A stretch of DNA of 23,892 bases. It comes from Gemmatimonadota bacterium. Lineage in GTDB: Bacteria; Gemmatimonadota; Gemmatimonadetes; Gemmatimonadales; GWC2-71-9. The position numbers and the translations under genes are program-made. Under the pieces are notes generated by a model that did no database searches, was not told the origin of the DNA, and saw nothing but the letters and a program-made list of their open reading frames with translations. The DNA lies in assembly GCA_003221005.1 (NCBI GenBank), contig QHTZ01000015.1, positions 1 to 23,892 on the forward strand, in the 5' to 3' direction. Of the stretch, positions 2,118 to 18,540 are shown piece after piece (the stretch's first letter is position 1; every line of letters starts with the position of its first letter).

Positions 2118-2539
2118 CACCCCTCCAGGGAGCGCAGCAAGCTGCGCAGCTCCGGCGCCGACAGATCTTCCCAGTCCGTGTCGGCACTGCCTGGTGCGTC
2201 CTCCCACGACTGATCGAACGTGCTCAGGACCTCGCGGAGCTGGTCGGGCGACAGGTCGTTCAGGTCCACGCCGGCTGGCGCCCCGATGCCGCGTGCGGGC
2301 CTCGCATGCTGGCGCACGTTGCGCAACACCGCGCTCGTCCCGAGTAACAGCACGGCGGCCGCGGCGAGCGACAGCCACACCGGGCGCCGCCGGGTCCAAT
2401 GCACGGTGCGTGGCGTCTGCCGCAGCCGCTCGAGCACCGCCTGCGCCGCGGCCTCGACGTCCAGCCGCTCCGCCGCCCGCGCCCCTAGTCCCTGGGCGAT
2501 CGCCCGCAGCTCGGCGTCCTGCAAGTCGTCTCGGTTCAC
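2117..2539 (-). CDS. Putative single-TM anti-sigma factor (140 aa)
   Basis: GTG start overlaps the sigma stop (GTGA). Short cytoplasmic N-terminus, TM WLSLAAAAVLLLG and acidic C-terminus. Lies directly after the ECF sigma. Confidence 0.7.
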   Translation of the reverse strand: MNRDDLQDAELRAIAQGLGARAAERLDVEAAAQAVLERLRQTPRTVHWTRRRPVWLSLAAAAVLLLGTSAVLRNVRQHARPARGIGAPAGVDLNDLSPDQLREVLSTFDQSWEDAPGSADTDWEDLSAPELRSLLRSLEG

Positions 2540-3093
2540 TTCAAGTGCTCCTTCAGGCGCTTGGCGGCATGGTGATAATGGACCCGCGCCGCTCCCGGCG
2601 ACGTGCCGAGCGCTGCGGCGATGTCGTCGTATTCCATCCCCTGCTGGGCCCGCAGCAGGAACACCTCGCGCTGCATCCGCGGCAGCTGCTCGAGACCCTG
2701 CTGCAGCCGCGCCTCCAGCTCCACCGCAACCGTGCGCTCGTGCGGATCTCCGTCCGTCGCGCGCAACCCGTCGTCGAGCGGCACGACGAGCGCGCGCTTC
2801 GCCCGCCGTGAAGCGTCCTTCAGCACGTTGCCGCCGATGGTGAGCAACCAGGTACGGAACTGGCACTGGTTGCGGAACCGGTCCACGGCGCGGAACGCAC
2901 GAATGAAAGTCTCCTGCACTAGGTCGTCCACGTCGGCGTCGCGTGCGCCCGCGCTCGCGAGAAAGCGGGCGAGCGCGCGGGCGTGGCGGCGCACCAGTTC
3001 GGCCGCCGCCTGCTCGTCGCCGCTCCGCCACGCGGCGATCAGTGCCGCATCAGGAGACGAGGCGGCGGCGGCGACGGCGTCCGCTCGGGCCAT
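2536..3093 (-). CDS. ECF-family RNA polymerase sigma factor (about 185 aa)
   Basis: Region 2 (DDLVQETFIRAF...FRTWLLTI) and region 4 (LPRMQREVFLLR..GMEYDDIAAALG..GAARVHYHHA). Start at ATG 3093 is uncertain. Confidence 0.9.
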   Translation of the reverse strand: MARADAVAAAASSPDAALIAAWRSGDEQAAAELVRRHARALARFLASAGARDADVDDLVQETFIRAFRAVDRFRNQCQFRTWLLTIGGNVLKDASRRAKRALVVPLDDGLRATDGDPHERTVAVELEARLQQGLEQLPRMQREVFLLRAQQGMEYDDIAAALGTSPGAARVHYHHAAKRLKEHLK

Positions 3094-3236: not shown

Positions 3237-3254
3237 TTCGAACATCCGTTCGAA
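3237..3254. promoter_or_regulatory. Candidate TetR (PaaR-type) operator
   Basis: Perfect palindrome TTCGAAC-ATCC-GTTCGAA overlapping the predicted start site, 5 bp before the TetR ATG. Confidence 0.7.
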
Positions 3255-3259
3255 AACCC

Positions 3260-3856
3260 ATGCGCCCCTACGACGAACGCCTCGATCACCTCCTCGCCCA
3301 GGCCGCCCGGGTGTTCGCCGACAAAGGCTACCACTCGACCACCATGCGCGACCTCGCCGCCGCGAGCGGGATGTCCCTCGCCGGGATGTACTACTACGTA
3401 CGCGGCAAGGAAGAGCTGCTGGCGAAGATCCAGGAGCGCTGCTTCACACGGGTGCTCGAGGGCGCGGAGCGGGCGGTCGCGGCCCGGACCGGCGACCCGG
3501 TGGAGCGGCTGCAGGCGTTCATTCGGCACCACGTCACCTTCTTCGCCGCGCATATGCCGGAGATGAAGGTGCTGTCGCACGAAGCCGCGTCGCCCACGGG
3601 GGAGCGGCTGCGCCGCATCGCCACCATCAAGCGCCGCTATGTCGACCTGCTGGAGGGCCTGCTGCGCGAGGCGGCGCCCGACGAGACGCCGGTGGATCGG
3701 AGCGCGGCGGCCTACATCCTCTTCGGCATGATGAACTGGATCTACAACTGGTACCACCCCGCGGGGGAGATCGACCCGGAGCGCCTCGGCGCGCTGATCG
3801 CCCGCATCTTCCTCGGCGGCTTCGTCGAGGCGCGATCCCCGGTACATGGAGGCTGA
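3260..3856 (+). CDS. TetR/AcrR family regulator (PaaR/KstR2-like)
   Basis: HTH AARVFADKGYHSTTMRDLAAASGMSLAGMYYY..GKEELL; C-terminal FGMMNWIYNWY, typical of acyl-CoA-sensing TetRs. Confidence 0.92.
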   Translation: MRPYDERLDHLLAQAARVFADKGYHSTTMRDLAAASGMSLAGMYYYVRGKEELLAKIQERCFTRVLEGAERAVAARTGDPVERLQAFIRHHVTFFAAHMPEMKVLSHEAASPTGERLRRIATIKRRYVDLLEGLLREAAPDETPVDRSAAAYILFGMMNWIYNWYHPAGEIDPERLGALIARIFLGGFVEARSPVHGG

Positions 3857-3862
3857 TGTCTC

Positions 3863-4678
3863 ATGGCGACCCTGACCGAACCCAAGGCCGAACGCAGGAC
3901 GCTGGTGCATTACATGGTCGAAGGCGGTGTCGCGATCCTCGAGCTCGACGATCCCCCCGCCAACACGTACACCTACGAGATGATGCGCCAGCTGGACGAG
4001 GCGATCCTCCAGGCGCGCTTCGATGACAACGCGCACGTCCTGATGGTGCGCGGGCATGGTGAGAAATTCTTCTCCGCGGGCGCGAACATCGCCTATCTCA
4101 ACAGCATCACGCCACGCTACAAGTACTTCTTCTGCCTGCACGCGAACGAGACACTGAACCGCCTCGAGCAGACCCCCAAGCTGACGATCGCGGCGCTGAA
4201 CGGGCACACCGTGGGGGGCGGGCTCGAGATCGCTATGGCGTGCGACATCCGGCTCGCGAAGGAGAACGCCGGGAAGATCGGACTCCCCGAGGTGAACCTG
4301 GGCGTGCTCCCGGGCACCGGCGGCACGCAGCGGCTCGCGCGCATCATCGGGAAGCCCCGGGCGATCGAAATGATGGCGAAGGGGGAGACGTTCTCGTTCG
4401 ACAAGGCGAAGGAGCTGGGCATCGTGAACGAGGTGTTCCCGGCCGACGACTACTGGGACCAGATCATGCTCTACGCGAAACAGTTCTGCCCGCCGCACAA
4501 GGCGGCGAAGGCGGTGGGACTGATCAAGCGCGCGGTCCAGTCGGGCGCCGAGGTGCCGTTCGAGTCGGGTCTCGCGCTCGAGCGCGAGCTGCAGCAGCAG
4601 CTGTTCCAGAGCGACGACGCGAAGGAAGGGATCGCAGCATACGTCGAGAAGCGGGTGGCGGAGTTCAAGGGGAAGTGA
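3863..4678 (+). CDS. Crotonase-family protein resembling the catalytic domain of BoxC
   Basis: FFSAGANI, KYFFCLHANETLN, GGGLEIAMACD and LPEVNLGVLPGTGG. Both crotonase Glu residues are present. GGAGG RBS. Confidence 0.85.
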   Translation: MATLTEPKAERRTLVHYMVEGGVAILELDDPPANTYTYEMMRQLDEAILQARFDDNAHVLMVRGHGEKFFSAGANIAYLNSITPRYKYFFCLHANETLNRLEQTPKLTIAALNGHTVGGGLEIAMACDIRLAKENAGKIGLPEVNLGVLPGTGGTQRLARIIGKPRAIEMMAKGETFSFDKAKELGIVNEVFPADDYWDQIMLYAKQFCPPHKAAKAVGLIKRAVQSGAEVPFESGLALERELQQQLFQSDDAKEGIAAYVEKRVAEFKGK

Positions 4679-6102
4679 GAACCGATCTGCTGATCGGCGG
4701 GGAGTGGCGGGCGGGCGCCCGGCGCTATTGCCTGACGAACCCCGCCACCGAAGAGACGCTCGCCGAGGTGGGCGAGGCGGGCGAAGCGGAGATCGACGCG
4801 GCGGTGCGGGCAGCGCGCGCCTGCTTCGAGGCAAAGGAATGGCGCGAGCTGTCGGCGCGCCGGCGCGGTGCCCTGCTCTTCCGGCTCGCGGACCTGCTCG
4901 AGGAGCGATCTCAGGAGATCGCCGAAGTCGAGACCCGGAACAACGGCAAGCCGCTGTTCGAGTCGAAGATCGACGTCGCGATGGCGGTCGAAACCTTCCG
5001 GTACTACGGCGGCTGGGCCGACAAGCTCACGGGCGACACGCTCCCGGTGAGCGGCAACTTCTTCACCTACACGCTGCGCGAGCCCGTGGGCGTGGTGGGC
5101 GCGATCGTGCCGTGGAACTTCCCATTGAACCTCGCCGCGTGGAAGGTCGCGCCGGCGCTCGCCGCGGGATGCACCGTGGTGCTGAAACCGGCGCATGAGA
5201 CACCTCTCACCGCGCTGCTCCTGGGTGAGCTCGCGCTCGCGGCGGGCTTCCCCGCAGGTGCCCTCAATGTGGTTCCCGGCCCGGGCCCTACGGCCGGCGC
5301 CGCCCTGGTGCGCCATCCCCTCGTGGACAAGATCGCGTTCACCGGGTCCACCGAGGTGGGCCAGTGGATCATGCGGGAGGCCGCCGGCACGCTCAAGCGC
5401 GTCACCTTGGAGCTCGGCGGTAAGAGCCCCAACATCATCTTCGCCGACGCGGATCTCGCGGCCGCCGTGCGCGGCGCGCAGAGCGGGATCTTCTACGGTA
5501 AGGGCGAGGTGTGCGCTGCGGGGTCGCGCCTCCTCGTCGAGCAGTCGGTTCACGACCAGGTGGTGAGTGAGCTCGCCCAGCGTGCGAAGAAGCTTGTCCC
5601 GGGCGATCCTTTCGACAAGAACACCCGTCTCGGCGCCATCGTGTCGAAACAGCAGCAGGAGAAGGTGCTCTCCTACATCGCCGCCGGGGAGCAGGCAGGG
5701 GCGCGCCTAGTGGCTGGAGGGAAGGCCGCGAAGGTGAACGGCAAGGGCTACTTCGTCGAGGCCACCGTGTTCGACGGGGCGCAGCCGGGGATGAAGATCG
5801 TGGACGAGGAGATCTTCGGCCCGGTCCTGTCCGTGCTCACGTTCGCGGGCGAGGAGGAAGGCATCGAGCTCGCCAATCGCTCGATGTACGGGCTTGCGGC
5901 CGGCATCTGGACGAAGGACGTCCAGAGGGCGCACCGCGTAGCGCGTGCCATCAAGGCGGGGACGGTATGGGTGAACACCTACAATTTCTACGACCCGGCG
6001 GCGCCGTTCGGCGGTTACAAGTTCTCGGGGTTCGGGCGGGATCTGGGGAAAGAGGCGCTGAAGAACTATACGGAAGTGAAGACGGTGTGGGTCGGGCTAT
6101 GA
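4675..6102 (+). CDS. NAD(P)-dependent aldehyde dehydrogenase (BoxD-like by context; 475 aa)
   Basis: PWNFP, FTGSTEVG, LELGGKSP, GEVCAAGSR, EEIFGPV, PFGGYK; GTG start overlapping the upstream TGA. Confidence 0.93.
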   Translation: MRTDLLIGGEWRAGARRYCLTNPATEETLAEVGEAGEAEIDAAVRAARACFEAKEWRELSARRRGALLFRLADLLEERSQEIAEVETRNNGKPLFESKIDVAMAVETFRYYGGWADKLTGDTLPVSGNFFTYTLREPVGVVGAIVPWNFPLNLAAWKVAPALAAGCTVVLKPAHETPLTALLLGELALAAGFPAGALNVVPGPGPTAGAALVRHPLVDKIAFTGSTEVGQWIMREAAGTLKRVTLELGGKSPNIIFADADLAAAVRGAQSGIFYGKGEVCAAGSRLLVEQSVHDQVVSELAQRAKKLVPGDPFDKNTRLGAIVSKQQQEKVLSYIAAGEQAGARLVAGGKAAKVNGKGYFVEATVFDGAQPGMKIVDEEIFGPVLSVLTFAGEEEGIELANRSMYGLAAGIWTKDVQRAHRVARAIKAGTVWVNTYNFYDPAAPFGGYKFSGFGRDLGKEALKNYTEVKTVWVGL

Positions 6103-6105
6103 CTG

Positions 6106-6133
6106 GATGCGGGATGCGGGATGCGAGATGCGG
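6106..6133 (+). repeat. 4 x 7-bp tandem repeat GATGCG(G/A)
   Basis: Units at 6106, 6113, 6120 and 6127, between the ALDH stop and the thiolase start. Confidence 0.9.
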
Positions 6134-6136
6134 TCC

Positions 6137-7329
<1,193 letters not shown>

Positions 7330-7330
<1 letters not shown>

Positions 7331-8085
7331 TGGCCGCCTATGAGCGGGTGCTGATCGCGATGGAGAACGGCGTCGCCACGGTGACGCTGAACCGTCCCGA
7401 GAAGCTCAACGCCTTCGACCGCGACTCGTGCGCGGAGCTGCTCGAGGGCCTGCGGATGGTGGCGCGGTCGGAAGCGGTGCGCGTGATCGTGCTCACGGGC
7501 GCCGGGCGCGGGTTCTGCGCCGGCGCCGACCTCAGCGTGCTGGCGGAAGATGGCGCGGCGCTCGTGGCGGCGGGGCGCGACATCGCGCTCACCATCCGCC
7601 ACGCACCGCAGCCCGTAATCGCGTCCGTGAACGGGCCGGCGGCGGGGGGCGGCGCGAACCTCGCGCTCGCGTGCGACTACCGCATCGCATCGGAGCGCGC
7701 ATCGATCGGCCAGGTGTTTCACAAGCTGGGCCTCGCTCCCGATTGGGGCGGCAGCTTCTTCCTGCCACGCTTGGTGGGTACGGGCCGGGCGCTCGAGCTG
7801 GTATGGAGCGCCCGCATGGTGGACGCGAGCGAAGCCGCGCGCCTCGGCCTGTTCGATCGTGTCGTGTCCCACGAGACGCTGCAGCAGGAGACGCGGCGGC
7901 TCGCCGAGCTGTGGGCGGGCCAGCCGCCCCTGGCCGTGCGGAGCGCCAAGGAAGCCGTCTACCGGAGCGGCGAGAGCTCGCTCGCGGCCACGCTCGATCT
8001 CGAGATCGCGCTGCAGCAGCAGCTCTTTGCCAGCGCCGACGCGCGGGCGCGCATCGGCGCGGCGCGCGAGCAGAGGAGTCACTGA
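7330..8085 (+). CDS. Enoyl-CoA hydratase/isomerase, PaaG-like (251 aa)
   Basis: TLNRPEKLNA, FCAGADL, GGGANLALACD, GLAPDWGGSFFLPRLVG. Has the Asp-type site and lacks the two Glu residues. TGATG overlap. Confidence 0.85.
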
Positions 8086-9218
8086 TGGTACGGAAACTGG
8101 GCAACTTCGACGACTGGATCGACTATTTCCGCTACTGGCAGGAGTCGATCGGCCTGCCTCAGGGCGAGCTGCGGGACTTCAAGTTCGAGGCCCAGTTCGG
8201 GGACCAGGACGTCCCCATCATCGAGTTCGGGCATTATAAAGGCCAGCGCAAGTGGCCGACCGTGATGCACATCCCCGACCAACGCATCCGCGACGCCCTG
8301 CTCAACCTGATCGTGTACCAGGGCGATACGGAGTTCGCCTCGGTGGAGCAGCAGCGCAGCCTGCTCACGCATGCGCCCTCCGATTACGACCTGCTGGCGC
8401 TCCAGCGCGTGATGACCGAGGAGATGCGGCACGGGTGGCAGATGTCGTACCTCTTGTGCACGCACTTCGGGGACGAGGGCAGGCGCGAAGCGGCGAAACT
8501 GCTCGAGCGCCGTGCCGACGAAGGGGAGCGCCTGCTCGGCTCGTTCAACGAGCTGGTGGACAACTGGCTCGACTTCTTCACCTACACCCAGTTCATCGAC
8601 CGCGACGGCAAGTTCCAGCTCACCATGCTCTCCGTGTCGGGGTTCGATCCGCTGTCCCGCTCGATGACCCCGATGCTCAAGGAGGAGTCGTTCCACCTGG
8701 GCACGGGGAACAACGGCCTGTTGCGGATCGCGAAGGCGGGGAAGATGCCGCCCGAGCTGATCCAGAAGTTCTTCTACAAGTGGATCCCGACGGCGTTCGA
8801 CCTGTTCGGCACCGACAACTCGTCGTCCGCCCACTGGGCGTACGTGTGGGGGCTCAAGGGGCGCTACGACGAGCGGGACAATCAGGTGGAGCCCGACAAG
8901 GCAAAGCTCAACGAATACAGCCGCGAGCTGTACCGTCAGGAGATCTCGAAGCTCGTCGAGCGGCTCAACATGTTTATCCCCGAGCGCGAGCGGCAGCTCA
9001 AGGTCCCCGTGACGCAGTTCAACCGCAAGATCGGCGTCTACGCCCACCAGCGGTACACGGTGGACGGAGAGCCGGTCGACGATCCGGCGAAGTACCAGGC
9101 GTACCTGGCCACGGTGCTGCCCCAGGCCGCGGACTATCAGCGGGTGCACGACATCGAGAAGGAGCCGGACTGGATCGAGCCGAAGAAGGCCGACAGCCTG
9201 CTCAAGCCATCGGCGTGA
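8085..9218 (+). CDS. boxB: BoxB-like diiron aromatic-CoA epoxidase, short form (377 aa)
   Basis: QGDTEFASVEQQ, APSDYD, EEMRH, DRDGKFQL, SGFDPLSR and EESFH follow the BoxB motif order, with two ExxH diiron motifs. GAGGAG RBS and TGATG overlap. Substrate is unproven. Confidence 0.82.
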   Translation: MVRKLGNFDDWIDYFRYWQESIGLPQGELRDFKFEAQFGDQDVPIIEFGHYKGQRKWPTVMHIPDQRIRDALLNLIVYQGDTEFASVEQQRSLLTHAPSDYDLLALQRVMTEEMRHGWQMSYLLCTHFGDEGRREAAKLLERRADEGERLLGSFNELVDNWLDFFTYTQFIDRDGKFQLTMLSVSGFDPLSRSMTPMLKEESFHLGTGNNGLLRIAKAGKMPPELIQKFFYKWIPTAFDLFGTDNSSSAHWAYVWGLKGRYDERDNQVEPDKAKLNEYSRELYRQEISKLVERLNMFIPERERQLKVPVTQFNRKIGVYAHQRYTVDGEPVDDPAKYQAYLATVLPQAADYQRVHDIEKEPDWIEPKKADSLLKPSA

Positions 9219-9219
9219 T

Positions 9220-9906
9220 GTGACCGCGCTCGTGATCGCGCACCGCGGCGCGTCGGGCTACGAGCTGGAGAACTCGCTCGCCGCCTTCCGCGCCGCCGGG
9301 CCGAAGGGCGCCGATGCCGTTGAGCTGGACGTGCACTCCACCACGGACGGCGCCCTGTTCGTGCACCACGACGACGCCCTCGACGGATCGCGCCGCATTC
9401 CGCAGCTGACGCGCGAGCAGGCCCGCGCGTTCCGCCTGGCGAACGGAGAGCCGCTGCCGCTGCTGGACGAGGCGCTCCAGGCGGCCGGCACGCTCCGCGT
9501 GTTCGTCGAGGTGAAGAGCCTCGACCCGCGCTTCGACGATCGGCTGCTCGCCGCGCTCGAGCGGGGCCCCAACCCTTCGGGCTACGCAGTCCACTCCTTC
9601 GATCACCGCGTGGTTCAGCGGCTCGGTAGCAGGCGCCCCGCCCTGCCCCGCGGCGTGCTCTCTGGGAGCTACCCCGTGCGCCCGCTGGCGCCACTGCACG
9701 ACGCCGGAGCGACCACCCTGTGGCAGGAGCGGTCGCTCGTGGACCGCGCCCTCGTCGATCTGATGCACGGGGCGGGGTGCCAGCTGCTGGTCTGGACCGT
9801 GGACCAGCCGGCGGAAATGGAGCGGCTGCTGTCGCTCGGCGTGGACGGGCTCTGCACGAATTTTCCCGACGTCGGCCGGCGCGTGGTGGATCGGTTCGCC
9901 GCATGA
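9220..9906 (+). CDS. Glycerophosphodiester phosphodiesterase family protein
   Basis: IAHRGASG, ENSLAAF, VELDVH, VHHD, VEVK, WTVD, GVDGLCTN. Confidence 0.9.
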   Translation: MTALVIAHRGASGYELENSLAAFRAAGPKGADAVELDVHSTTDGALFVHHDDALDGSRRIPQLTREQARAFRLANGEPLPLLDEALQAAGTLRVFVEVKSLDPRFDDRLLAALERGPNPSGYAVHSFDHRVVQRLGSRRPALPRGVLSGSYPVRPLAPLHDAGATTLWQERSLVDRALVDLMHGAGCQLLVWTVDQPAEMERLLSLGVDGLCTNFPDVGRRVVDRFAA

Positions 9907-10760
9907 GCGCGCCCCGGGTCGCCGTGATCGGCGCGGGCACGATGGGCCACGGCATCGCCTACGTCGCGGCGCTCGCGGGGTGCGACGTCAGGCTCACCGA
10001 CAGCCGCGCCGATGCGCTCCCACTGGCGCTGGACCGGATCACCGGGCTGTTGGCCGGCGCCGTGCAGCGCGGCAAGCTCACCGCCGACGAGCGGGCGGCC
10101 GTCGCCAGGCGCGTCCGGGGCGACGCCGCGCTCGGCCTCGCCGTCGCTGATGCGGGTGTTGTGATCGAGGCTGTGGTCGAGGACCTGGGCGTCAAGCAGG
10201 CGCTGTTTCGCGAAGTCGAGCACGCGGCACCGCGTGACGCGCTGCTCGCGACGAACACCTCCTCCCTCTCCATCGCCGCCATCGCGGGCGCCGTCCGCGA
10301 CCCCGCCAGAGTGATCGGCATCCATTTCTTCAACCCGGTACACGCGATGAAGCTCGTCGAGATCGTGACGCACCCGAGGCTGGGACATGGCGCCCTCGAT
10401 CGGGCGATCGCGCTCGCGCGGCAGCTCGGCAAGGAGCCGATCGTGGTGAAGGACTCGCCCGGGTTCGCCACGAGCCGGCTGGGCATCTTGCTTGGTCTCG
10501 AGGCGATGCGGATGGTCGAGGAAGGCGTGGCCTCGGTCGAGGACATCGACAAGGCGATGGAGCTGGGCTACAACCACCCGATGGGCCCGCTCAAGCTGTC
10601 GGACCTGGTCGGGCTCGACGTGCGGCTCGCGATCGCCGAGACGTTGCACCAGGCGCTGGAGGAGCCGCAGTTCCAGCCGCCGCGCATCCTGCGCGACAAG
10701 GTCGCGAAGGGCGAGCTCGGGAAGAAATCGGGGAAGGGCTTTTATGTGTGGGGCGGTTAG
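9903..10760 (+). CDS. 3-hydroxyacyl-CoA dehydrogenase (285 aa)
   Basis: VIGAGTMGHGIA, IEAVVE, TNTSSL, HFFNP, HPMGPL..DLVGLD; ATGA overlap. Confidence 0.93.
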   Translation: MSAPRVAVIGAGTMGHGIAYVAALAGCDVRLTDSRADALPLALDRITGLLAGAVQRGKLTADERAAVARRVRGDAALGLAVADAGVVIEAVVEDLGVKQALFREVEHAAPRDALLATNTSSLSIAAIAGAVRDPARVIGIHFFNPVHAMKLVEIVTHPRLGHGALDRAIALARQLGKEPIVVKDSPGFATSRLGILLGLEAMRMVEEGVASVEDIDKAMELGYNHPMGPLKLSDLVGLDVRLAIAETLHQALEEPQFQPPRILRDKVAKGELGKKSGKGFYVWGG

Positions 10761-11623
10761 TGGAGCGATTCAGCCGTATCACCGACGTCCACATTCACGT
10801 GCAGCCGTGGCGCGAGCTCAAGCCCGCGGTGCTCGACGTGATGCGCCGCGGCAAGGAAGCCGACTGGGACGTGCTGCTCCAGCTCATGGACGACCCGGCC
10901 GCTCTGCTCGAGCTGATGGACCGGGCCGGCGTGTGGCGCGCCGGCCTCGTGAACTACCCCGCGCCCGACGTCATGGGCTTCACCGACGCCGCCAACGCGT
11001 TCGCCGCCCGCTACGCGGAGGCGAACCGCGAGCGGCTGCTGCCGTACGGCGGCGTGCATCCCCGGTTCACCCGTGATCCCGCGGGCGACGTGGACCGGCT
11101 GTTCGAGCTCGGGATCCGCGTCCTCAAGCTGCACCCCCCGCACCAGTTGTTCCCCGCGAACGCCTACACCGGGGGACTCGACGCGCTGGGAACGATCTAC
11201 CGACGCGCCGAGGAGCGCGGCTTGCCGGTGATGGTGCATACCGGAACGAGCGTCTTCCCAGGGGCGCGTGCCAAGTACGGCAACCCGCTGGAACTCGATG
11301 ACGTGGCGGTCGACTTTCCCGATCTCACGCTGCTGATGGCCCACGGCGGCCGGCCCCTCTACATGGAGGAGGCGTTCTTCGTCCTGCGCCGGCACAAGAA
11401 CGTGTGGCTCGACGTATCCGGGATTCCGCCGGCGAAGTTGTTGCAGTACTTTCCGCGACTCTCCGAGCTCGCGGACCGGGCGCTGTGGGGGACCGATTGG
11501 CCCGGACCGGGGGTGCGGGACATGAAGCAGAACATCGAGCAGTTCGCGACGCTCCCGCTCTCGGACGCTCACCGCAAGGCGATTCTCGAGACCAATGCGC
11601 TGGCTGTGCTTCCTCCTCGCTAG
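10760..11623 (+). CDS. Amidohydrolase_2 family metal-dependent hydrolase/decarboxylase
   Basis: DVHIH, KLHPPHQ, VMVHTG, MAHGG, WGTDWP; TAGTG overlap. Confidence 0.85.
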   Translation: MERFSRITDVHIHVQPWRELKPAVLDVMRRGKEADWDVLLQLMDDPAALLELMDRAGVWRAGLVNYPAPDVMGFTDAANAFAARYAEANRERLLPYGGVHPRFTRDPAGDVDRLFELGIRVLKLHPPHQLFPANAYTGGLDALGTIYRRAEERGLPVMVHTGTSVFPGARAKYGNPLELDDVAVDFPDLTLLMAHGGRPLYMEEAFFVLRRHKNVWLDVSGIPPAKLLQYFPRLSELADRALWGTDWPGPGVRDMKQNIEQFATLPLSDAHRKAILETNALAVLPPR

Positions 11624-12350
11624 CACTGCCGCCGCCCAGGGGGGCGCGGGGGGTGGGCGGCCGGTGAAGCCGCTGCGGTTCGACCTCGCCGCCATTCCCG
11701 TGACCCGGGACTCGTTCACCTTCTTCCTCGATCGCCAGGCGCACGGCTTCGCTGTGTGGCAGTACGAGACCCGCGCGCGCACTCCGCATGAGGAGGTCGT
11801 GTACTCTGCGTACTCGGAGTTTCAGCCGGTCGAGGAGGAGCGGCTCCGCGTCGTGCTCGATCGGACCAGCGGCGCTCCGCTCGCATCGTACCACCACATC
11901 GAGCTGTTCTCGCCCCGGAGCGACACCCTCATGGTGGAGCACGACCTCGAAGTGAAGGACGGCCGGGTCCAGGGCACGCGCAAGGTCGGCACCAAGGATG
12001 GCAAGGTGAAGGCCATCCCCGTGAGCGTGCCGCTGCCGCCCGGTACCGTGTGGTCCAACTACGAGCTGTACGCCGCCGCGGTCACGAACGCCGAGCCCGG
12101 CGACTCGCTCGCCGCCCCGGACTACCGCGAGTTCAGCGATTCGCTCCGCACGCTGTACTTTTTCGCCGAGCAGCCCACGGCCGTCAACGTGCCAGCGGGG
12201 CGGTTCGACGTCCTCCCCTTACGCAGCGGCGACTTCCGTCTCTACGTCACCCGGCAGCCGCCGCGGCGCGTGGTCAAGGGGGAGACGCTGGACGGGCGGT
12301 TCAGCTTCGAGCTGGCGCACACCGGGCCCGTCGTGCCCACGGACCCGTGA
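11595..12350 (+). CDS. Secreted beta-rich hypothetical protein (DUF3108-like)
   Basis: Signal peptide MRWLCFLLASTAAA-Q; VNVPAGRFDV motif; C-terminal LYVTRQPPRRVVK. Confidence 0.65.
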   Translation: MRWLCFLLASTAAAQGGAGGGRPVKPLRFDLAAIPVTRDSFTFFLDRQAHGFAVWQYETRARTPHEEVVYSAYSEFQPVEEERLRVVLDRTSGAPLASYHHIELFSPRSDTLMVEHDLEVKDGRVQGTRKVGTKDGKVKAIPVSVPLPPGTVWSNYELYAAAVTNAEPGDSLAAPDYREFSDSLRTLYFFAEQPTAVNVPAGRFDVLPLRSGDFRLYVTRQPPRRVVKGETLDGRFSFELAHTGPVVPTDP

Positions 12351-12384
12351 CGTGACCGGACTCCCACAACGGAGTGGACATCTG

Positions 12385-13764
12385 ATGCCGCGACGCGCGC
12401 TCATTGCTGTTTCGGTCAGTCTCGCGCTGTGTCTCGCGCCCGGTGGACTAGTCTGCCAGACGGCAGGCCAGATCAACTACGCCACGTTCACGCTGCCGAA
12501 CGGCCTGCGGGTGATCTACGCGGAGGATCACACCACGGCGGTCGTGTCGGTGGACCTGTGGTACAACGTGGGATCGCGTAACGAGCGCCCCGGCCGCTCC
12601 GGGTTCGCGCATCTGTTCGAGCACCTCATGTTCGAGGGATCGGCGCATGCGCCCAAGGGGCTGCACTCGCACTTGATCGAAAGCGCCGGCGGGCAGGACA
12701 ACGCTTCGACCGCCGAGGACCGCACCAACTTCTACGCGACCGTCCCCTCGAACTACCTGAACGTCGTGCTGTGGCTCGAAGCGGACCGCATGCGCTCCCT
12801 CACCGTGACCGACGAGACGTTCCACAACCAGCGGGAGACCGTGAAGGAGGAGCGCCGGCTCCGGGTGGACAACGAGCCCTACGGCGAGCTCTTCGCCGAC
12901 GGGCTGACCTGGCCGTTCGACAGCGCGACGTGCTTCCCTTACGCGCACAGCGTCATCGGCTCGATGGCGAACCTGAACGCGGCCACGCTCCCGGACGTGA
13001 GGCAGTTCTTCGAGACCTACTACGCGCCCAACAACGCCACGCTCGTCGTGAGCGGCGACTTCCGAGTGGTGGAACTGCGGCGTCTCGTGAACCAGTACTT
13101 CGCCGGCGTGCGCGCGCACCCGACGCCACCCCCGATCGCGTGCGAGTACCGGCTCTCGCCCGGTCCCCAGCACCGCACGCTGACCGACCGCCACGCCAAT
13201 CTCCCTGCGGTCGTGCGGATGTACCGCGTCCCGCCGCACGACGACCCCGACACGCCCGCGCTCGGGCTCCTCAACATCATCCTGGGCGACGGGGAGAGCT
13301 CGCGCCTGAACGTGGCGGTGGTGCGGCGGGAAAAGGCCGCGCTCGGCGTGCAGGTGATGATCAACCCCTACGACGTGCGGCGCGGCCCCGGGGTGCTGCT
13401 TGTCCTCGGAATCGCGAACCAGGGGGTCGATCCGGCGAAGCTCGACTCCTTGCTGGCCCGGGAGGTGGACAGCATGCGCACCACGAACGTGGCGCCGGAG
13501 GAGCTCGAGAAGGCCAAGAACCTGTTCCGCGCCGACTTCGTCCGCACCCGCGAGACCTCACTCGGACGCGCGGAAGAGCTCCAGCACTACCAGATGTTCC
13601 ACCGCTCGCTCGCCGAGATTAACACTGATCTCGATCGCTATCTCGCCGTTACGGCGGACGACATCCGGCGCGTCGCCGGCAAGTACCTCGACGCGGTCAA
13701 TGCGGTGGACGTGATCGTGCGGCCGGGAGCGGGTGGAGCAAAGTCGACGGGAGGTGGCGAATGA
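12385..13764 (+). CDS. M16B zinc peptidase, catalytic subunit
   Basis: LPNGLRV, WYNVGSRNE, HLFEH (HxxEH), VKEERR, YYAPNNA; signal peptide. Alternative start is GTG 12352. Confidence 0.92.
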   Translation: MPRRALIAVSVSLALCLAPGGLVCQTAGQINYATFTLPNGLRVIYAEDHTTAVVSVDLWYNVGSRNERPGRSGFAHLFEHLMFEGSAHAPKGLHSHLIESAGGQDNASTAEDRTNFYATVPSNYLNVVLWLEADRMRSLTVTDETFHNQRETVKEERRLRVDNEPYGELFADGLTWPFDSATCFPYAHSVIGSMANLNAATLPDVRQFFETYYAPNNATLVVSGDFRVVELRRLVNQYFAGVRAHPTPPPIACEYRLSPGPQHRTLTDRHANLPAVVRMYRVPPHDDPDTPALGLLNIILGDGESSRLNVAVVRREKAALGVQVMINPYDVRRGPGVLLVLGIANQGVDPAKLDSLLAREVDSMRTTNVAPEELEKAKNLFRADFVRTRETSLGRAEELQHYQMFHRSLAEINTDLDRYLAVTADDIRRVAGKYLDAVNAVDVIVRPGAGGAKSTGGGE

Positions 13765-15878
13765 GGGCGGTCCGGCGGTCGGGCGGTCGGGCGGTCCAGC
13801 GTCTGCTGGTCCTGGCATCGCTGTTGACCGCCAGACCGCCTGACCGCCTGATCGCCCAGGATTCTTTCCCAATGCGTCCCCCGCGGCCCGCCACGCTCTC
13901 CCCCGCGCGGTTCCCTCCGTTCGAGGAGGCCAGGCTCGCGAACGGGGTCGAGCTGGTCGTGGTCGAGCGGCACGAGGAGCCCGTGGCCTCCGTGAGCCTG
14001 AGCTTCCGTGCCGGGGGGATCTACGACCCGTCGGGGAAGGAAGGGCTCGCGGTGCTGGCGGCGGAAGTCCTGACCAAGGGGACGGCCACCCGCTCCGCGG
14101 AGCAGATCGCCGCCACGATCGAAGGCGTCGGAGGCAGTCTGTCGGCGAGCGCGGGTGACGACTTTCTCACGATCGCGGGCGACGCGTTGAGCGACCAGCT
14201 GGAGCTCCTGTTCGGCCTGGTCGGTGACGTGACGTTGCACGCGACGTTTCCAGCAAGCGAGGTGGAGCTTGCGCGCACGCGGGAGCTGTCGGCCCTGGCG
14301 CTCGAGCTGTCGCAGCCGGCGAGCGTCGCATCGCGGTTCTTCGCAAAGGAGATCTACGGGAGCAACCCCTACGGGCGCAGCTCCACCGAGCAGAGCCTCA
14401 AGGCAATCACGCAGCAGGATCTCGTGGGCTTCGCGCGCGCGCGGCTCCGCCCGGCGGGCGCGCTCCTCGTCGTCGCGGGCGACGTCACCCGAGCGCAGGT
14501 CGAGTCGCTCGCGCAGCAGGCCTTCGCTGGCTGGACGGGTGCGCCGCCGCCCTCGCCCGCCGCGGTGACCGCGCGCGCCAAGCGGGCGAGCGACATGCTG
14601 CTCGTCCACCGCCCCGGGTCGGCACAGTCGAACGTGCTGGTCGGGAACACGACCATCCTGCCCACCGATTCGCTCTACTATGCCGGCCGCCTCGCGACTC
14701 ACGTCCTGGGCGGCGGCGCGGACTCGCGTCTGTTCCGGATTCTGCGCGAGGAGAAGAGCTGGACCTACGACGCCCACGCCGCGCTGCGCCGCTACCGCGG
14801 CCTCGGGTACTGGGTCGCGGCGGTGGAGGTGCGCACCGAAGCGACCGACAGCGCGCTCAAGGAGCTGCTTCATCAGATCGACGTAATCCGGACCCGCGTG
14901 GTCCCGGACTCGGAGCTGGACGCGGCGAAGGGCTATCTCGTGGGCTCCTTCCCGCTCACGATCGAGACCCCGCGGCAGATCGCGGGCCAGGTGACGAGCG
15001 CCAAGCTGCTTGGCCTCGACCCTGACTACCTGCGGCTGTACCGCGAGCGGCTGAGAGCGGTCCGGTCACTCGCGGTCCGGGCAGCCGCCCAGCGCCTGTA
15101 CCACGCCGGCGTCTTATCTATCGTCGTCGCGGGAGATGGGGCGAAGCTGTACGACGCGCTCAAGGCCATCGCCCCGGTGCGGGTCGTGGACGTGGACGGC
15201 AACCCGATCGCGCCTGCGGACCTCGTCCCGAAGGCCAGTGCGCTGCCGCTCGACCCGGCACAGCTCGTACCCCACCGCGACAGCTTCGCGGTGACGCTCC
15301 AGGGGAAGCCGATCGGCGCACGGGTGACCGCCGTGCGACGCACGGCGGACTCGCTCGTGTTCAACGAGACGCTCGCGTTCGGGACCGGTGGCAAGCAGGA
15401 CTTGACGGTTGTGTTCGATCCCGCCGATCTGAGCGTGCGGCGGGTAGACCAGACGGGCAGCACCGGCGGCCAGCCGAACGAGGTGCACCTGGTGTACGGC
15501 GCCGGGCGCGTCAAGGGGAGCGCCGTCGTGCCGGACCAGAGCGGCACGCCCCGCACGGTGGCGATTGACACGACCATCGCCCCGGGGACCTACGACGACA
15601 ACGCGATCGATGTGATCGTGCTCGCGCTCCCGCTCGCCCCGGGGAAGCGCTTCGCGGTCAATGGATTCTCGTCGGGCGACGCGAGCGCCAAGGTGCTCAC
15701 CGTGGCGGTAGCCGGGCTCGACAGCGTGACCGTACCCGCCGGCACGTTCGCCGCATTCAAGGTCCAGGTGTCGGGCGGCCAGGCGCCGTTCGTCCTCCAC
15801 GTCACTCGCGACGCTCCCCGCCGGATCGTCAAGTTCGCGATGGTGGGAGCGCCGATCGTCTTCGAACTCGTGCAATAG
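13761..15878 (+). CDS. M16B peptidase non-catalytic subunit with extra C-terminal beta domain
   Basis: LANGVELVV; HxxEH replaced by VLAAE; SRLFRILREEKSWTY (R/Y motif); about 210-aa C-terminal extension containing VTVPAGTF. Confidence 0.88.
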   Translation: MRAVRRSGGRAVQRLLVLASLLTARPPDRLIAQDSFPMRPPRPATLSPARFPPFEEARLANGVELVVVERHEEPVASVSLSFRAGGIYDPSGKEGLAVLAAEVLTKGTATRSAEQIAATIEGVGGSLSASAGDDFLTIAGDALSDQLELLFGLVGDVTLHATFPASEVELARTRELSALALELSQPASVASRFFAKEIYGSNPYGRSSTEQSLKAITQQDLVGFARARLRPAGALLVVAGDVTRAQVESLAQQAFAGWTGAPPPSPAAVTARAKRASDMLLVHRPGSAQSNVLVGNTTILPTDSLYYAGRLATHVLGGGADSRLFRILREEKSWTYDAHAALRRYRGLGYWVAAVEVRTEATDSALKELLHQIDVIRTRVVPDSELDAAKGYLVGSFPLTIETPRQIAGQVTSAKLLGLDPDYLRLYRERLRAVRSLAVRAAAQRLYHAGVLSIVVAGDGAKLYDALKAIAPVRVVDVDGNPIAPADLVPKASALPLDPAQLVPHRDSFAVTLQGKPIGARVTAVRRTADSLVFNETLAFGTGGKQDLTVVFDPADLSVRRVDQTGSTGGQPNEVHLVYGAGRVKGSAVVPDQSGTPRTVAIDTTIAPGTYDDNAIDVIVLALPLAPGKRFAVNGFSSGDASAKVLTVAVAGLDSVTVPAGTFAAFKVQVSGGQAPFVLHVTRDAPRRIVKFAMVGAPIVFELVQ
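13766..13856. repeat. 4+4 inverted tandem repeat (GGCGGTC x4 ... GACCGCC x4), 8-bp period, inside a signal peptide
   Basis: GGCGGTC at 13766, 13774, 13782, 13790; GACCGCC at 13826, 13834, 13842 and GATCGCC at 13850. Confidence 0.92.
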
Positions 15879-15889
15879 CAGAGGACCCG

Positions 15890-17335
15890 ATGAGAGCAGC
15901 CACCGCATACCTGCTCGCCGGCTGGGCGGCGGCGTGCGCCTCCAGCGGGGCGCACGCGGCGCCTGCTGCCGTTCCTGCCGCCGCAGCCACGCCTGCGCCG
16001 CGGGGAGCCACCGGCACCGCTGCCGAGAGCCTCAGCGTCAACCGCCCCCAGTACCCGTCCACTTACCAGCGCCACCCCTACCCGCCCGTCGTCATCACCA
16101 ACGCCACGATCATGACCGCCGCCGGACAGGAGATCCCGCACGCGTCGATCCTGTTCCGTGAAGGCCAGATCGTCGCGGTCGGCGCCACGGTGCAGGCGCC
16201 GTCCGACGCGATCAAGGTGGACGGCACCGGCAAGTGGGTGACGCCCGGCATCATCGACGTGCACTCGCACTTGGGCGTCTACGCGGCCCCTGCGACGGAC
16301 GCCGAGTCGGACGGCAACGAGCTCACCGGTCCCGTCACGGCGGAGGTGTGGGCGGAGCACTCCTTCTGGCCGCAGGACCCGCAGATTCCGCTCGCGATCG
16401 CGGGGGGCGTGACCACGATTCAGGCGCTCCCCGGGTCGGGCAACCTGATCGGCGGGCGGAGCGCGGTCCTGAAGCTCATCCCCACCCGCACCGTGCAGGC
16501 GATGAAATTCCCCGGCGCCCATTACGGCCTCAAGATGGCGTGCGGTGAGAACCCGAAGCGCGTGTACGGACGGCGGAACCAGTTCCCATCGACTCGGATG
16601 GGCAACGTGGCGGGCTACCGCGGCGCCTTCATCCAGGCGGAGGAATATCGGCGCAAGTGGGACGCGTGGAACCGCGACCACAAGGGTGATCCCCCCGACC
16701 GCAACCTGCGGCTCGAGACCCTGGCCGAGGTGCTGCGGGGCAACATCTACGTGCAGAACCACTGCTACCGCGCCGACGAGATGGCGCAGATGCTCGACCT
16801 CGCCCGCGAATTCGGCTTCAAGATCCGCGCGTTCCATCACGCGGTGGAGTCGTACAAGATCGGCGATCTCCTGGCGCAGGCGGGCACGGCCTCGGCCGTG
16901 TGGGCGGACTGGTACGGCTTCAAAGAAGAGGCGATGGACGGCATCCAGCAAAACGCGGCGCTGCTCCAGCAGGCGGGGGCGCGCATCACGCTGCACTCGG
17001 ACGATCCGGGCGGCATCCAGCGCCTGAACCAGGAGACGGCGAAGGCGATGTACGCCGGGCAACGCGCCGGGATCCCGGTCACGCGGGACCAGGCGCTGCG
17101 ATGGATCACCGCGAACCCGGCGTGGGTGTTGGGGCTCGACTCGGTCGTCGGTACTCTCGAGCCCGGGAAGATGGCAGACGTCGTGCTGTGGTCAGGAGAT
17201 CCGTTCTCCGTCTACAGCAAGGCGGTGCAGGTCTATAACGACGGGTGGCTGGTGTACGACCGCAACGACCCGGCGCACCAACCGCGGTCCGACTTCGAGC
17301 TGGGCCAGGAGCCGCCGCCCGGGAGCGACCGATGA
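15890..17335 (+). CDS. Amidohydrolase_1 family, probable lipoprotein, metal site intact
   Basis: Lipobox-like WAAAC; PGIIDVHSH, KMACGENPK, NHCYR, FHHAVE, LHSD, GTLEPGKMADVVLW. Confidence 0.88.
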   Translation: MRAATAYLLAGWAAACASSGAHAAPAAVPAAAATPAPRGATGTAAESLSVNRPQYPSTYQRHPYPPVVITNATIMTAAGQEIPHASILFREGQIVAVGATVQAPSDAIKVDGTGKWVTPGIIDVHSHLGVYAAPATDAESDGNELTGPVTAEVWAEHSFWPQDPQIPLAIAGGVTTIQALPGSGNLIGGRSAVLKLIPTRTVQAMKFPGAHYGLKMACGENPKRVYGRRNQFPSTRMGNVAGYRGAFIQAEEYRRKWDAWNRDHKGDPPDRNLRLETLAEVLRGNIYVQNHCYRADEMAQMLDLAREFGFKIRAFHHAVESYKIGDLLAQAGTASAVWADWYGFKEEAMDGIQQNAALLQQAGARITLHSDDPGGIQRLNQETAKAMYAGQRAGIPVTRDQALRWITANPAWVLGLDSVVGTLEPGKMADVVLWSGDPFSVYSKAVQVYNDGWLVYDRNDPAHQPRSDFELGQEPPPGSDR

Positions 17336-18540
17336 TCGCGGTGCTACTCGCCCAGACGATCGCGATCACGGGCGGCACGGTGTATCCCGTGTCCGGTCCG
17401 AAGGTCGACCATGCGACGGTCCTGATGCGCGACGGCCGGATCGCGGCCGTGGGCGCCAACGTGCCGGTTCCCCACGATGCCCTGCGGATCGACGCGACCG
17501 GCAAATGGGTCACGCCGGGGCTGATCGATGGCGCAGGTCAGATGGGTTTGACGGAGATCGGCGCGGTGCCGGGGACGAACGACGCTGCGGTGCGGAACGA
17601 CACCGTGGCCGCGTCGTTCAATGTGGCCGAAGGGATCAACCCGGCGTCCACACTCATCCCGATCACACGCATCGAAGGCGTCACGACGACGCTGGCCGCG
17701 CCCGAGACCGGTCTCATCCGCGGGCAGGCGGTGCTCATCGACCTCGACGGAGCGACCCTTGAGGCGATGCTCGTGAAGTCGCCGGTCGCCGTCGTGGCGG
17801 AGCTGTCGGAGCGCACCAAGGATGCGGGAGGCGGGTCCCGCGCCGGCGCCGCGGAGCGGCTGCGCCGTGTGTTCGACGACGCGCTCGAGTACGGCCGCCG
17901 CAAGACCGACTGGGCGCGCGCGCAGATCCACCCGCTCGCGGCGTCCGGCGCTGACCTGGCGGCGCTCGGTCCGGTGCTGCGGGGAGAGCTCCCCCTTATC
18001 GTGATCGCGAACCGGCGCAGCGATATCGAGACCGCGCTCCGTATCGGGCGGGAGTACCACCTGAAGCTGATCCTCGCGGGCGCAGCGGAGGGGTGGTTGA
18101 GCGCGAGCGCCATCGCGCGCGCCAACGTGCCGGTCCTGGTCCGGCCGCTCGACAACGTTCCCTCCTACGACGCGCTCGGCGTCCGCTACGAGAACGCCGC
18201 TTTACTCGCGAGGGCCGGCGTGAAGGTTGCGCTGCTGGAAACCGACACCCACAACTCCCGCAACCTGCGCCAGCAGGCTGGAAACGCAGTCGCGAACGGC
18301 ATGACATGGGACCAGGCGCTGCGGGCGGTGACGCTGTCGCCTGCCGAGATCTTCGGCGTGGCCGACCGCTACGGCTCAATCGCGCTCGGCAAAGTCGCCG
18401 ACGTCGTGGTCTGGTCGGGAGACCCGTTCGAGTTTGCGACGGCTGTGGAGCACGTCTACATCCGGGGACGGGAGATTCCGCTCAAGAGCCGGCAGACGGA
18501 GCTGCTGGAACGGTATCGAAAGCTGCCACCGACGTATTAG
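17332..18540 (+). CDS. Amidohydrolase_1 family, degenerate metal site (402 aa)
   Basis: Same fold motifs (DATGKWVTPGLID, GKVADVVVWSGDPF), but HxH is replaced by AGQ; ATGA overlap. Confidence 0.85.
   Translation: MIAVLLAQTIAITGGTVYPVSGPKVDHATVLMRDGRIAAVGANVPVPHDALRIDATGKWVTPGLIDGAGQMGLTEIGAVPGTNDAAVRNDTVAASFNVAEGINPASTLIPITRIEGVTTTLAAPETGLIRGQAVLIDLDGATLEAMLVKSPVAVVAELSERTKDAGGGSRAGAAERLRRVFDDALEYGRRKTDWARAQIHPLAASGADLAALGPVLRGELPLIVIANRRSDIETALRIGREYHLKLILAGAAEGWLSASAIARANVPVLVRPLDNVPSYDALGVRYENAALLARAGVKVALLETDTHNSRNLRQQAGNAVANGMTWDQALRAVTLSPAEIFGVADRYGSIALGKVADVVVWSGDPFEFATAVEHVYIRGREIPLKSRQTELLERYRKLPPTY

Follow-up and report, generated by a model that had tools for sequence, protein, structure and literature searches.

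The 23,892-nucleotide (nt) stretch of Gemmatimonadota DNA considered here, referred to as the window, is the entire contig C60 of a metagenome-assembled genome (2.79 Mb, 141 contigs, 93.9% complete; records of relatives carry a Gemmatimonadales label). Between positions 3260 and 11623 it holds nine tightly packed genes, which Pfam domains identify in order as a TetR regulator, a crotonase (ECH1), an aldehyde dehydrogenase (ALDH), a thiolase, a second crotonase (ECH2), a diiron protein with a PaaA_PaaC domain, a GDPD-family protein, a 3-hydroxyacyl-coenzyme A (CoA) dehydrogenase (HCDH) and an Amidohydro_2 protein. The original prediction, made from the DNA letters alone, had listed these nine genes, and all are present on the plus strand in the order given there. 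The run is probably a paa-type operon for aryl-CoA ring epoxidation in which the diiron protein, a single short enzyme of the BoxB family (short BoxB), replaces the multi-subunit epoxidase. Because sister operons carry a PaaA–PaaD–PaaC module instead, short BoxB would be a single-polypeptide substitute for a multi-subunit epoxidase of the phenylacetyl-CoA type.

Exchange of the oxygenase within a conserved operon

The gene order of the window was compared with that of 42 loci in which short BoxB is at least 64% identical (locus L025 was left out). The recurrent order is TetR-ECH1-ALDH-thiolase-ECH2-shortBoxB-GDPD-HCDH-(ECH3)-Amidohydro_2, and its recurrence in so many related loci indicates that the arrangement is not due to chance. 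Wherever a locus extends upstream of short BoxB (40 loci), the gene immediately 5' of it is ECH2; the gene immediately 3' is GDPD in 41 of the 42. In the sub-lineage of the window the third crotonase is missing from the operon, and an ECH3-like gene (50% identity) is found elsewhere, on contig C118. Among 37 loci from other phyla, 19 retain ECH1 (64–70% identical) within 8 kb of short BoxB, usually together with TetR and ECH2. Small conserved-looking open reading frames (ORFs) 5' of short BoxB at eight Acidobacteriota loci were set aside; they are arginine-rich, apparently wrong-frame or antisense, have no Pfam match and do not occur in the window.

Fourteen genomes from the family of the window (G037 and 13 others) contain this operon as far as each locus reaches, together with GDPD, Amidohydro_2 and the neighbouring ECF sigma factor gene, and there it carries genes for PaaA-, PaaD- and PaaC-like proteins (PaaA', PaaD' and PaaC'). 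The order is sigECF | TetR-PaaA'-PaaD'-PaaC'-ECH1-ALDH-thiolase-ECH2-GDPD-HCDH-(ECH3)-Amidohydro_2, with the ECF sigma gene at 14 of 14 loci, TetR at ten, thiolase at 12 and ECH3 at nine; a homologue of this sigma factor gene stands divergently next to TetR in both the short-BoxB and the PaaA' operons. In L119 ECH1 precedes PaaA', and L110 and L121 are cut off by the edge of the contig or of the fetched stretch, so that the last genes are missing from them. GDPD is in place at all 13 loci that reach its position (L121 ends inside ECH2). The PaaA' operons have clean junctions, with no diiron gene between ECH2 and GDPD and no short BoxB, and the window has no room between TetR and ECH1 for a PaaA–PaaD–PaaC module. 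Between the PaaA' operons and the window the scaffold proteins share 49–76% identity, which is the range seen in short-BoxB operons of other genera; ECH1 and ALDH are 71–76% identical at 13 of the 14 loci, and ECH1 is 69% identical in L119. The presence of PaaA–PaaD–PaaC in the same operon where short BoxB is lacking implies that the scaffold is of the paa type. The comparison of gene neighbourhoods that the original prediction had proposed thus upholds the synteny, but not the view of the locus as a streamlined Box cluster, given the PaaA–PaaD–PaaC genes in sister operons.

The PaaA' proteins score 115–138 bits on the PaaA model, for which the cut-off is 280. No PaaB or FNR-type PaaE was seen in the PaaA-like modules of the sister genera; in G037 a small zinc-ribbon 'haloarchaeal PaaE' accompanies PaaA', PaaD' and PaaC'. 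As a separate observation, the PaaA-like module (L108:8104-10604, with counterparts in L110-L121) resembles the paa genes of haloarchaea, its best NCBIfam matches being the models paad_haloarch and paae_haloarch, the latter a zinc ribbon of 56 positions.

In a tree built from ALDH and ECH1 (47 rows), the PaaA' operons are nested among the short-BoxB operons. To fit its well-supported branches the oxygenase must have switched at least twice, and parsimony on the same tree gives four switches. The shared operon and the nested tree together suggest that one conserved pathway runs with either oxygenase.

For the distribution of the two enzymes, 301 genomes of Gemmatimonadota served as the sample. 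Among these, short BoxB behaves as an accessory gene, found in 55 of them, and its presence is largely consistent within a genus; short and canonical BoxB matches together occur in 29 of 126 genera (two canonical-BoxB genomes included). A PaaA-type enzyme is found in 155 genomes, in 62 above the PaaA cut-off and in 93 as a PaaA-like protein at 113–245 bits (one of the 93 is a canonical PaaA cut short by the end of its contig). No genome carries both short BoxB and PaaA, where the overlap expected for independent genes, an illustrative figure, would be about 10 genomes in family f1 and 7.4 in family f2. Both canonical-BoxB genomes also carry canonical PaaA. Five genomes flagged as unpublished (G180, G155, G095, G326 and G449) are included in these counts or in the Acidobacteriota counts given below, and their removal changes no conclusion.

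The short BoxB protein and the scaffold enzymes

Short BoxB has 377 residues, compared with 471 positions in the BoxB model TIGR03225, on which it scores 220.8 bits (cut-off 499.1) in three stretches; canonical BoxB of G188, a genome of the same family, scores 857.9 bits as a control. The protein scores 43.2 bits on the PaaA model (cut-off 280) and 48.8 bits on PF05138 (PaaA_PaaC), above the gathering score of 28.5. Its matches in the PDB are BoxB chains at E = 1e-50 and PaaA at about 4e-6. The score of 221 bits, where canonical BoxB requires 499, sets the protein in a separate short clade outside canonical BoxB, the position that the original prediction had given it.

An AlphaFold2 model (38-sequence alignment) has a pLDDT of 94.6 and, with Foldseek, bears out a four-helix-bundle, ferritin-like diiron fold. 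The TM(query) values are 0.86–0.88 to BoxB (about 0.70 when normalised to BoxB) and about 0.5 to PaaA. As modelled, the protein is a trimmed BoxB. An N-terminal stretch, two internal insertions and the C-terminal tail that canonical BoxB-type proteins have are missing from it; short BoxB descends from the BoxB family with the loss of some 95 residues of peripheral segments. Identity is about 31–32% to the solved BoxB chains (Foldseek) and 37–39% to canonical BoxB-type representatives, with stronger conservation in the aligned core than these overall values show.

The iron ligands of BoxB are E120, E150, H153, D211, E240 and H243 (PMC5489048). All six are present in the alignment of the window protein, as E83, E113, H116, D172, E201 and H204, and they are retained in 33 of 34 short forms. 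The second shell that orients the benzoyl group in BoxB comprises Q116, T119, S123, F193, F203/F206 and T210 (PMC5489048). Five of these seven residues are identical in the window protein (Q116, T119, S123, F193 and F203), while Tyr stands in place of F206 and Ile in place of T210. The two substitutions, which stand beside the ligand D211, are characteristic of the short forms (F206 to Tyr in 32 of 34, T210 to Ile or Val in 32 of 34).

The clade is large. More than 7,275 clusters at 90% identity match short BoxB, and relatives are encoded in at least 588 stretches of species genomes. The titles of these records name Gemmatimonadota, Acidobacteriota, Binatia and other phyla, with source names that are inconsistent, and related sequences are 57–90% identical across phyla. 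Public annotation uses four names for the clade: 'benzoyl-CoA 2,3-dioxygenase component B', 'phenylacetate-CoA oxygenase subunit PaaI', 'Phenylacetic acid catabolic protein' and 'hypothetical protein'.

Several divergent relatives were seen alongside. In P0191, a short form of 367 residues (Myxococcota label), substitutions affect five of the six ligands (E to H, E to N, H to S, D to N and E to H); judged by these changes, it is probably not an oxygenase. P0275 and P0277 (693–695 residues) combine BoxB-like and EF-hand calcium-binding domains and are 35–37% identical to the window protein. A third BoxB-like group, neither canonical nor short, occurs in 13 of 251 Acidobacteriota genomes (for example G471, G308, G400 and G513), with frames of 420–550 residues that are 31–35% identical to the window protein.

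The best NCBIfam match of ECH1 is PRK07658 (enoyl-CoA hydratase; 214.8 bits), its score on PaaF is 168.8 (cut-off 371), and its top PDB match is 2PPY; ECH1 is 64–89% identical in related loci across phyla. ECH2 is best matched by PaaG (TIGR02280; 195.5 bits, cut-off 345), and its PDB matches are 2EJ5 and E. coli PaaG (4FZW_C). The original prediction had taken the crotonases for a half-size BoxC, an assignment that was rejected: on the BoxC model (cut-off 712) ECH1 reaches 79.7 bits and ECH2 29.3, and both match much better elsewhere, ECH1 as an ordinary hydratase and ECH2 as a PaaG-like isomerase. The best NCBIfam match of ALDH is the phenylacetaldehyde dehydrogenase StyD (569 bits, cut-off 850). 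The thiolase scores 539.1 bits on PRK09050 (cut-off 605) and 536.6 on TIGR02430 (cut-off 597), and HCDH scores 247.6 bits on the PaaH model (cut-off 669.4), over positions 6–286 of 503.

From these assignments a route can be proposed in which positions 3237–11623 would act as one TetR-controlled operon, a paa/box 'hybrid', for ring epoxidation, hydrolytic opening and steps resembling β-oxidation. Short BoxB would perform the O2-dependent epoxidation and ECH2 would serve as the PaaG-like isomerase. ECH1, as an oxepin-CoA hydrolase or a PaaF-type hydratase, and ALDH could together act as a split PaaZ or stand in for BoxD, with ALDH oxidizing the ring-opened semialdehyde as BoxD or the ALDH domain of PaaZ does. 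HCDH would take the role of PaaH and the thiolase that of PaaJ or PcaF, giving succinyl-CoA and acetyl-CoA as end products. The electrons would be supplied by an unlinked donor other than BoxA or a reductase of the FNR/PaaE type.

Regulation, gene neighbourhood and absent partners

The features of the locus are collected in Table 1. Junctions within the nine-gene run are gaps of 1–6 nt or overlaps of 1–4 nt, and that between ECH2 and short BoxB reads TGATG, the stop codon overlapping the next start. The start of the ECF sigma gene is uncertain, as its ORF runs to 3261; starting from the in-frame ATG at 3093, the protein would have 185 residues. Amidohydro_2 is the final gene of the conserved operon, and its sole PDB relative is the uncharacterised BB4693 (3IRS).

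Table 1. Positions, strands and domain evidence for the features of the operon and its divergent neighbour (one-based positions in the window).
Feature	Position	Strand	Domains and remarks
ECF sigma factor	2536..3093	-	Sigma70_r2, r4_2 and ECF domains; divergent from operon
Candidate TetR operator palindrome	3237..3254		TTCGAAC-N4-GTTCGAA
TetR-family regulator	3260..3856	+	TetR_N + TetR_C_24
ECH1, crotonase fold, enoyl-CoA hydratase-like	3863..4678	+	ECH_1; coupled to ALDH gene
Aldehyde dehydrogenase (ALDH), NAD(P)-dependent	4675 (probable start)..6102	+	Aldedh, 603.5 bits
Thiolase, 3-oxoadipyl-CoA thiolase-like (PaaJ/PcaF-like)	6107..7330	+	Thiolase_N/C
ECH2, PaaG-like crotonase (isomerase)	7330 (probable start)..8085	+	ECH_1
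Short BoxB-family diiron oxygenase (predicted), 377 residues, P0002	8085 (ATG)..9218	+	PaaA_PaaC domain
GDPD, UgpQ-like glycerophosphodiester phosphodiesterase fold	9220..9906	+	GDPD, 120.2 bits; PDB GDPD matches
3-Hydroxyacyl-CoA dehydrogenase (HCDH)	9903 (probable start)..10760	+	3HCDH_N + 3HCDH
Amidohydro_2 (metal-dependent hydrolase/decarboxylase fold)	10748 or 10760..11623	+	PF04909, 122.4 bits

The regulator at the head of the operon, already recognized as TetR in the original prediction, is preceded by the exact palindrome of Table 1, which ends 6 nt before its ATG and occurs once in the window (0.06 expected). Exact copies lie 5' of TetR at 16 short-BoxB loci, at three PaaA' loci and at both canonical boxBC loci described below, and the window TetR is 35–40% identical to the TetRs beside those canonical boxBC genes. 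These features suggest that TetR is an acyl- or aryl-CoA-responsive repressor and that the palindrome is its candidate operator. One further exact copy is present in the genome, at C102:14600 (L100:6001-6018), between a divergent cstA gene (carbon starvation transporter) and an SDR gene; the SDR gene is followed by two proteins without a family match and then by an acyl-CoA dehydrogenase, and this gene set may belong to the same TetR regulon. A search of the palindrome regulon for a ligase or reductase returned only this site, with cstA on one side and the SDR to acyl-CoA dehydrogenase set on the other, and neither enzyme is there.

Downstream of the operon, 11595–12350 encodes a signal-peptide protein without a family match, and 12352–18540 encodes two M16 peptidases (one with DUF3108) and two Amidohydro_3/1 proteins. 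The synteny of these genes with the operon is retained in the nearest relatives, and 11595–18540 may be a peptide-degradation neighbourhood.

None of the window ORFs scanned with Pfam has a reductase or ligase domain, and the operon has no acyl-CoA dehydrogenase gene in the same scan. In the genome of the window the best match to BoxA reaches 27.2 bits (cut-off 459.2) and that to the two-domain BoxC (TIGR03222) 79.7 bits (cut-off 712.3), and the best of four AMP-binding genes scores 217.9 bits on the benzoate-CoA ligase model TIGR02262 (cut-off 375.25). These four enzymes resemble ligases for acetate, propionate and fatty acids. The genome also encodes small ferredoxins, for example at C14:16406 and C132:5689. 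PaaK gave no match in this genome at E ≤ 0.001; no second PF05138 gene is present in it, and tblastn did not find PaaA' or PaaC'. No BoxC-like gene is seen at any of 94 loci (80 short-BoxB and 14 PaaA' loci). The original prediction had described the electron donor and the ligase as unlinked or unknown; BoxA, BoxC and a dedicated aryl-CoA ligase are indeed absent from the window and were likewise not found in the 94%-complete genome. An outcome that it had named as speaking against itself, a diiron protein grouping within canonical BoxB with boxA, boxC and the ligase encoded elsewhere, is not what the model scores and genome searches gave.

The same gaps are seen in relatives. No BoxA above the cut-off was found in G032, G044 or the single-contig genome G125, and no NAD_binding_1 (FNR/PaaE-type) protein was found in the five genomes searched, among them that of the window, a single-contig genome and G188, a carrier of canonical PaaA. 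The relatives G065, G021 and G037, which have PaaA, gave no PaaK match at E ≤ 1e-10, and a fused indolepyruvate:ferredoxin oxidoreductase, which would be a ligase-free source of arylacetyl-CoA, was not found in the five genomes searched. Canonical boxB and boxC stand side by side with TetR in two genomes of the same family, G188 (L094, G188:C2:652000-670000) and G146 (L095, G146:C346), with BoxC scores of 882 and 913 bits; the boxB of G146 was identified by its match in the genome sample, and G188 adds an acyl-CoA synthetase. No BoxA homologue was found in either genome, and canonical BoxB there also seems, by gene content, to use a donor other than BoxA. Since relatives with canonical boxBC or paaA are also without BoxA, FNR-type reductases and PaaK, the absence of BoxA, a PaaE-type reductase and PaaK seems to characterise the lineage and not this cluster in particular, which departs from the original prediction, where the missing reductase and ligase were a special feature.

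Fused proteins were also examined as a route to the reductase. Twelve longer proteins (one or two sequences each) pair the enzyme with ECH, ALDH, EF-hand, XRE or AMP-binding domains and none with a reductase. P0029 (565 residues, short BoxB plus GDPD, one sequence) and a 564-residue ORF in L025 may be read-through errors and were not used as evidence. The L025 frame (L025:7998-9692, Rokubacteria label) starts with a short BoxB 77% identical to that of the window, and a real fusion, read-through or a mis-binned contig are possible origins of the two. At one Binatia locus (L058:9440-10699) a NuoF-like protein (FMN, 4Fe-4S, Complex1_51K) follows short BoxB, a single case.

Substrate, alternative readings and known systems

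Phenylacetyl-CoA is the substrate that we favour, with modest confidence, on the grounds that the same ECH1 and ALDH accompany both oxygenases, that short BoxB excludes PaaA and that BoxC is never present. Benzoyl-CoA is a less likely candidate, and a different compound would be less likely again. The caution in the original prediction that benzoyl-CoA itself might not be the substrate is borne out by this reading.

Several findings weigh against a paa-type operon with short BoxB as the epoxidase, or against phenylacetyl-CoA as its substrate. The conserved part of the pocket (Q116, T119, S123, F193 and F203) is BoxB-like and points to benzoyl-CoA, and characterised BoxB does not accept phenylacetyl-CoA (PMC4498308). 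The PaaA' proteins fall below the PaaA cut-off, so that their substrate, too, is assigned by likeness. None of the scaffold enzymes reaches the cut-offs for PaaG, PaaF, PaaH or PaaJ, though these models are their best or near-best matches. The non-overlap counts come from related and non-independent genomes, hence their illustrative value, and in Acidobacteriota the absence of overlap in 251 genomes compares with an expectation of only 1.0. The ALDH and ECH1 tree comes from a quick maximum-likelihood search only, its branch support is SH-aLRT and it is rooted at the midpoint. Neither an aryl-CoA source nor an electron donor was found in the genomes searched. Among the loci from other phyla, 18 of 37 show no ECH1 or ALDH within 8 kb of short BoxB (eight of the 18 hold less than 10 kb, and L081 keeps TetR and weak crotonase matches), and in the four Acidobacteriota loci examined short BoxB adjoins mutY-like genes. 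Every short-BoxB record listed comes from an uncultured organism.

The pocket residues would also suit a minimal Box pathway of the kind put forward in the original prediction, in which short BoxB forms 2,3-epoxybenzoyl-CoA, an ordinary crotonase carries out the hydrolysis and deformylation of BoxC, and ALDH stands in for BoxD. The enzyme is far nearer to BoxB than to PaaA, with five of seven benzoyl-orienting residues in common, the TetR and its operator resemble those of the canonical boxBC loci, and an isomerase, a hydratase, a dehydrogenase and a 3-oxoadipyl-CoA thiolase-like enzyme would fit the lower Box route equally. We nevertheless consider this pathway unlikely: no BoxC-like enzyme is found at the 94 loci, whereas canonical BoxB in the same family adjoins BoxC; the same operon runs with PaaA–PaaD–PaaC at 14 loci; short BoxB excludes PaaA (0 of 55 genomes), whereas the two canonical-BoxB genomes carry it; and the changes F206Y and T210I/V lie beside the ligand D211.

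An operon for general β-oxidation or short acyl-CoAs, with the diiron protein using O2 to desaturate or hydroxylate an aliphatic or alicyclic acyl-CoA, could account for the lack of an acyl-CoA dehydrogenase gene in the operon, the FadR-like TetR_C_24 type of the regulator, the second operator site before the SDR to acyl-CoA dehydrogenase set and the generic short-chain hydratases that best match ECH1. It is made quite improbable by the characterised relatives found for the diiron protein, which are aryl-CoA epoxidases only, by the conserved ring-contacting F193 and F203, by the interchange of the protein with the PaaA/C/D module, and by the best matches of the thiolase (3-oxoadipyl-CoA thiolase) and ECH2 (PaaG). 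That short BoxB is a catalytically idle relic or passenger, with the oxygenase encoded elsewhere, would agree with the failure to find a reductase and with the ligand losses of P0191, but it is hardly credible for an intact ORF with all six ligands, relatives conserved across phyla, a fixed position and a start overlapping the upstream stop, in a genome of which it is the sole PaaA_PaaC-family gene and in which PaaA' and PaaC' were not found.

The paa-type operon with short BoxB as its epoxidase thus accords best with the observed exchange. A bolder extension, which we offer tentatively and hold to be rather less than probable, is that short BoxB is a one-polypeptide epoxidase of phenylacetyl-CoA, or of aryl-CoAs more broadly, repeatedly swapped with the 3–5-subunit Paa epoxidase within a single conserved operon and served by a new class of donor, the latter proposed because the carriers searched have neither BoxA nor an FNR-type reductase; GDPD and Amidohydro_2 may then be novel enzymes of the pathway, replacing for example PaaZ, PaaI or PaaY in ring opening or salvage. 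No PaaI or PaaY domain is found among the window ORFs scanned.

In the literature searched (main texts), we found no description of the short clade or of the oxygenase swap. A 2026 survey of paa clusters chose contexts around the ligase gene (PMC13186573), a gene not found in these bacteria. With its mixed public annotation the clade is probably counted as benzoate degradation in metagenome surveys, and Gemmatimonadota, Acidobacteriota and Binatia are abundant soil phyla; such inferences would change if the clade feeds a paa-type route. If correct, the reading would provide a natural case in which a monomeric enzyme takes over the pathway step of a multi-subunit oxygenase, as well as a compact candidate part for engineering aromatic catabolism. 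It also sharpens the question of what reduces aryl-CoA epoxidases in lineages without BoxA and PaaE.

Among known proteins, the SSO1313-type PaaA/BoxB-like protein of Sulfolobus (PDB 4MUD, uncharacterised) shares the ferritin-like diiron core (E 1.5e-15) but has 235 residues, core helices only and a TM(query) of 0.50. BoxB of Azoarcus/Aromatoleum evansii (3PER, 3PM5 and 3Q1G; TIGR03225) has the same fold, the six ligands and five of the seven second-shell residues, and is likewise a single polypeptide without a PaaC-like partner gene. Short BoxB differs from it in length (377 compared with about 470 residues), in the subfamily changes F206Y and T210I/V, and in context, as it never adjoins BoxC, is without BoxA, sits in a paa-type operon and excludes PaaA. 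The boxBC clusters of G188 and G146 have a TetR of the same subfamily, an identical operator palindrome and no BoxA, but their BoxB is canonical, stands beside BoxC and co-occurs with canonical PaaA.

The paa operon of E. coli, Pseudomonas and Thermus is comparable in its TetR regulator, PaaG-like isomerase, hydratase or hydrolase with ALDH, PaaJ-like thiolase and dehydrogenase in the PaaH role. The PaaR of Thermus is of the TetR type. A TetR-type PaaR is also described in Corynebacterium (PMC13186573). The operon of the window is set apart from the paa operon by an oxygenase that is one BoxB-family chain instead of PaaA+B+C(+D+E), by the lack of a fused PaaZ and by its additional conserved GDPD and Amidohydro_2 genes.

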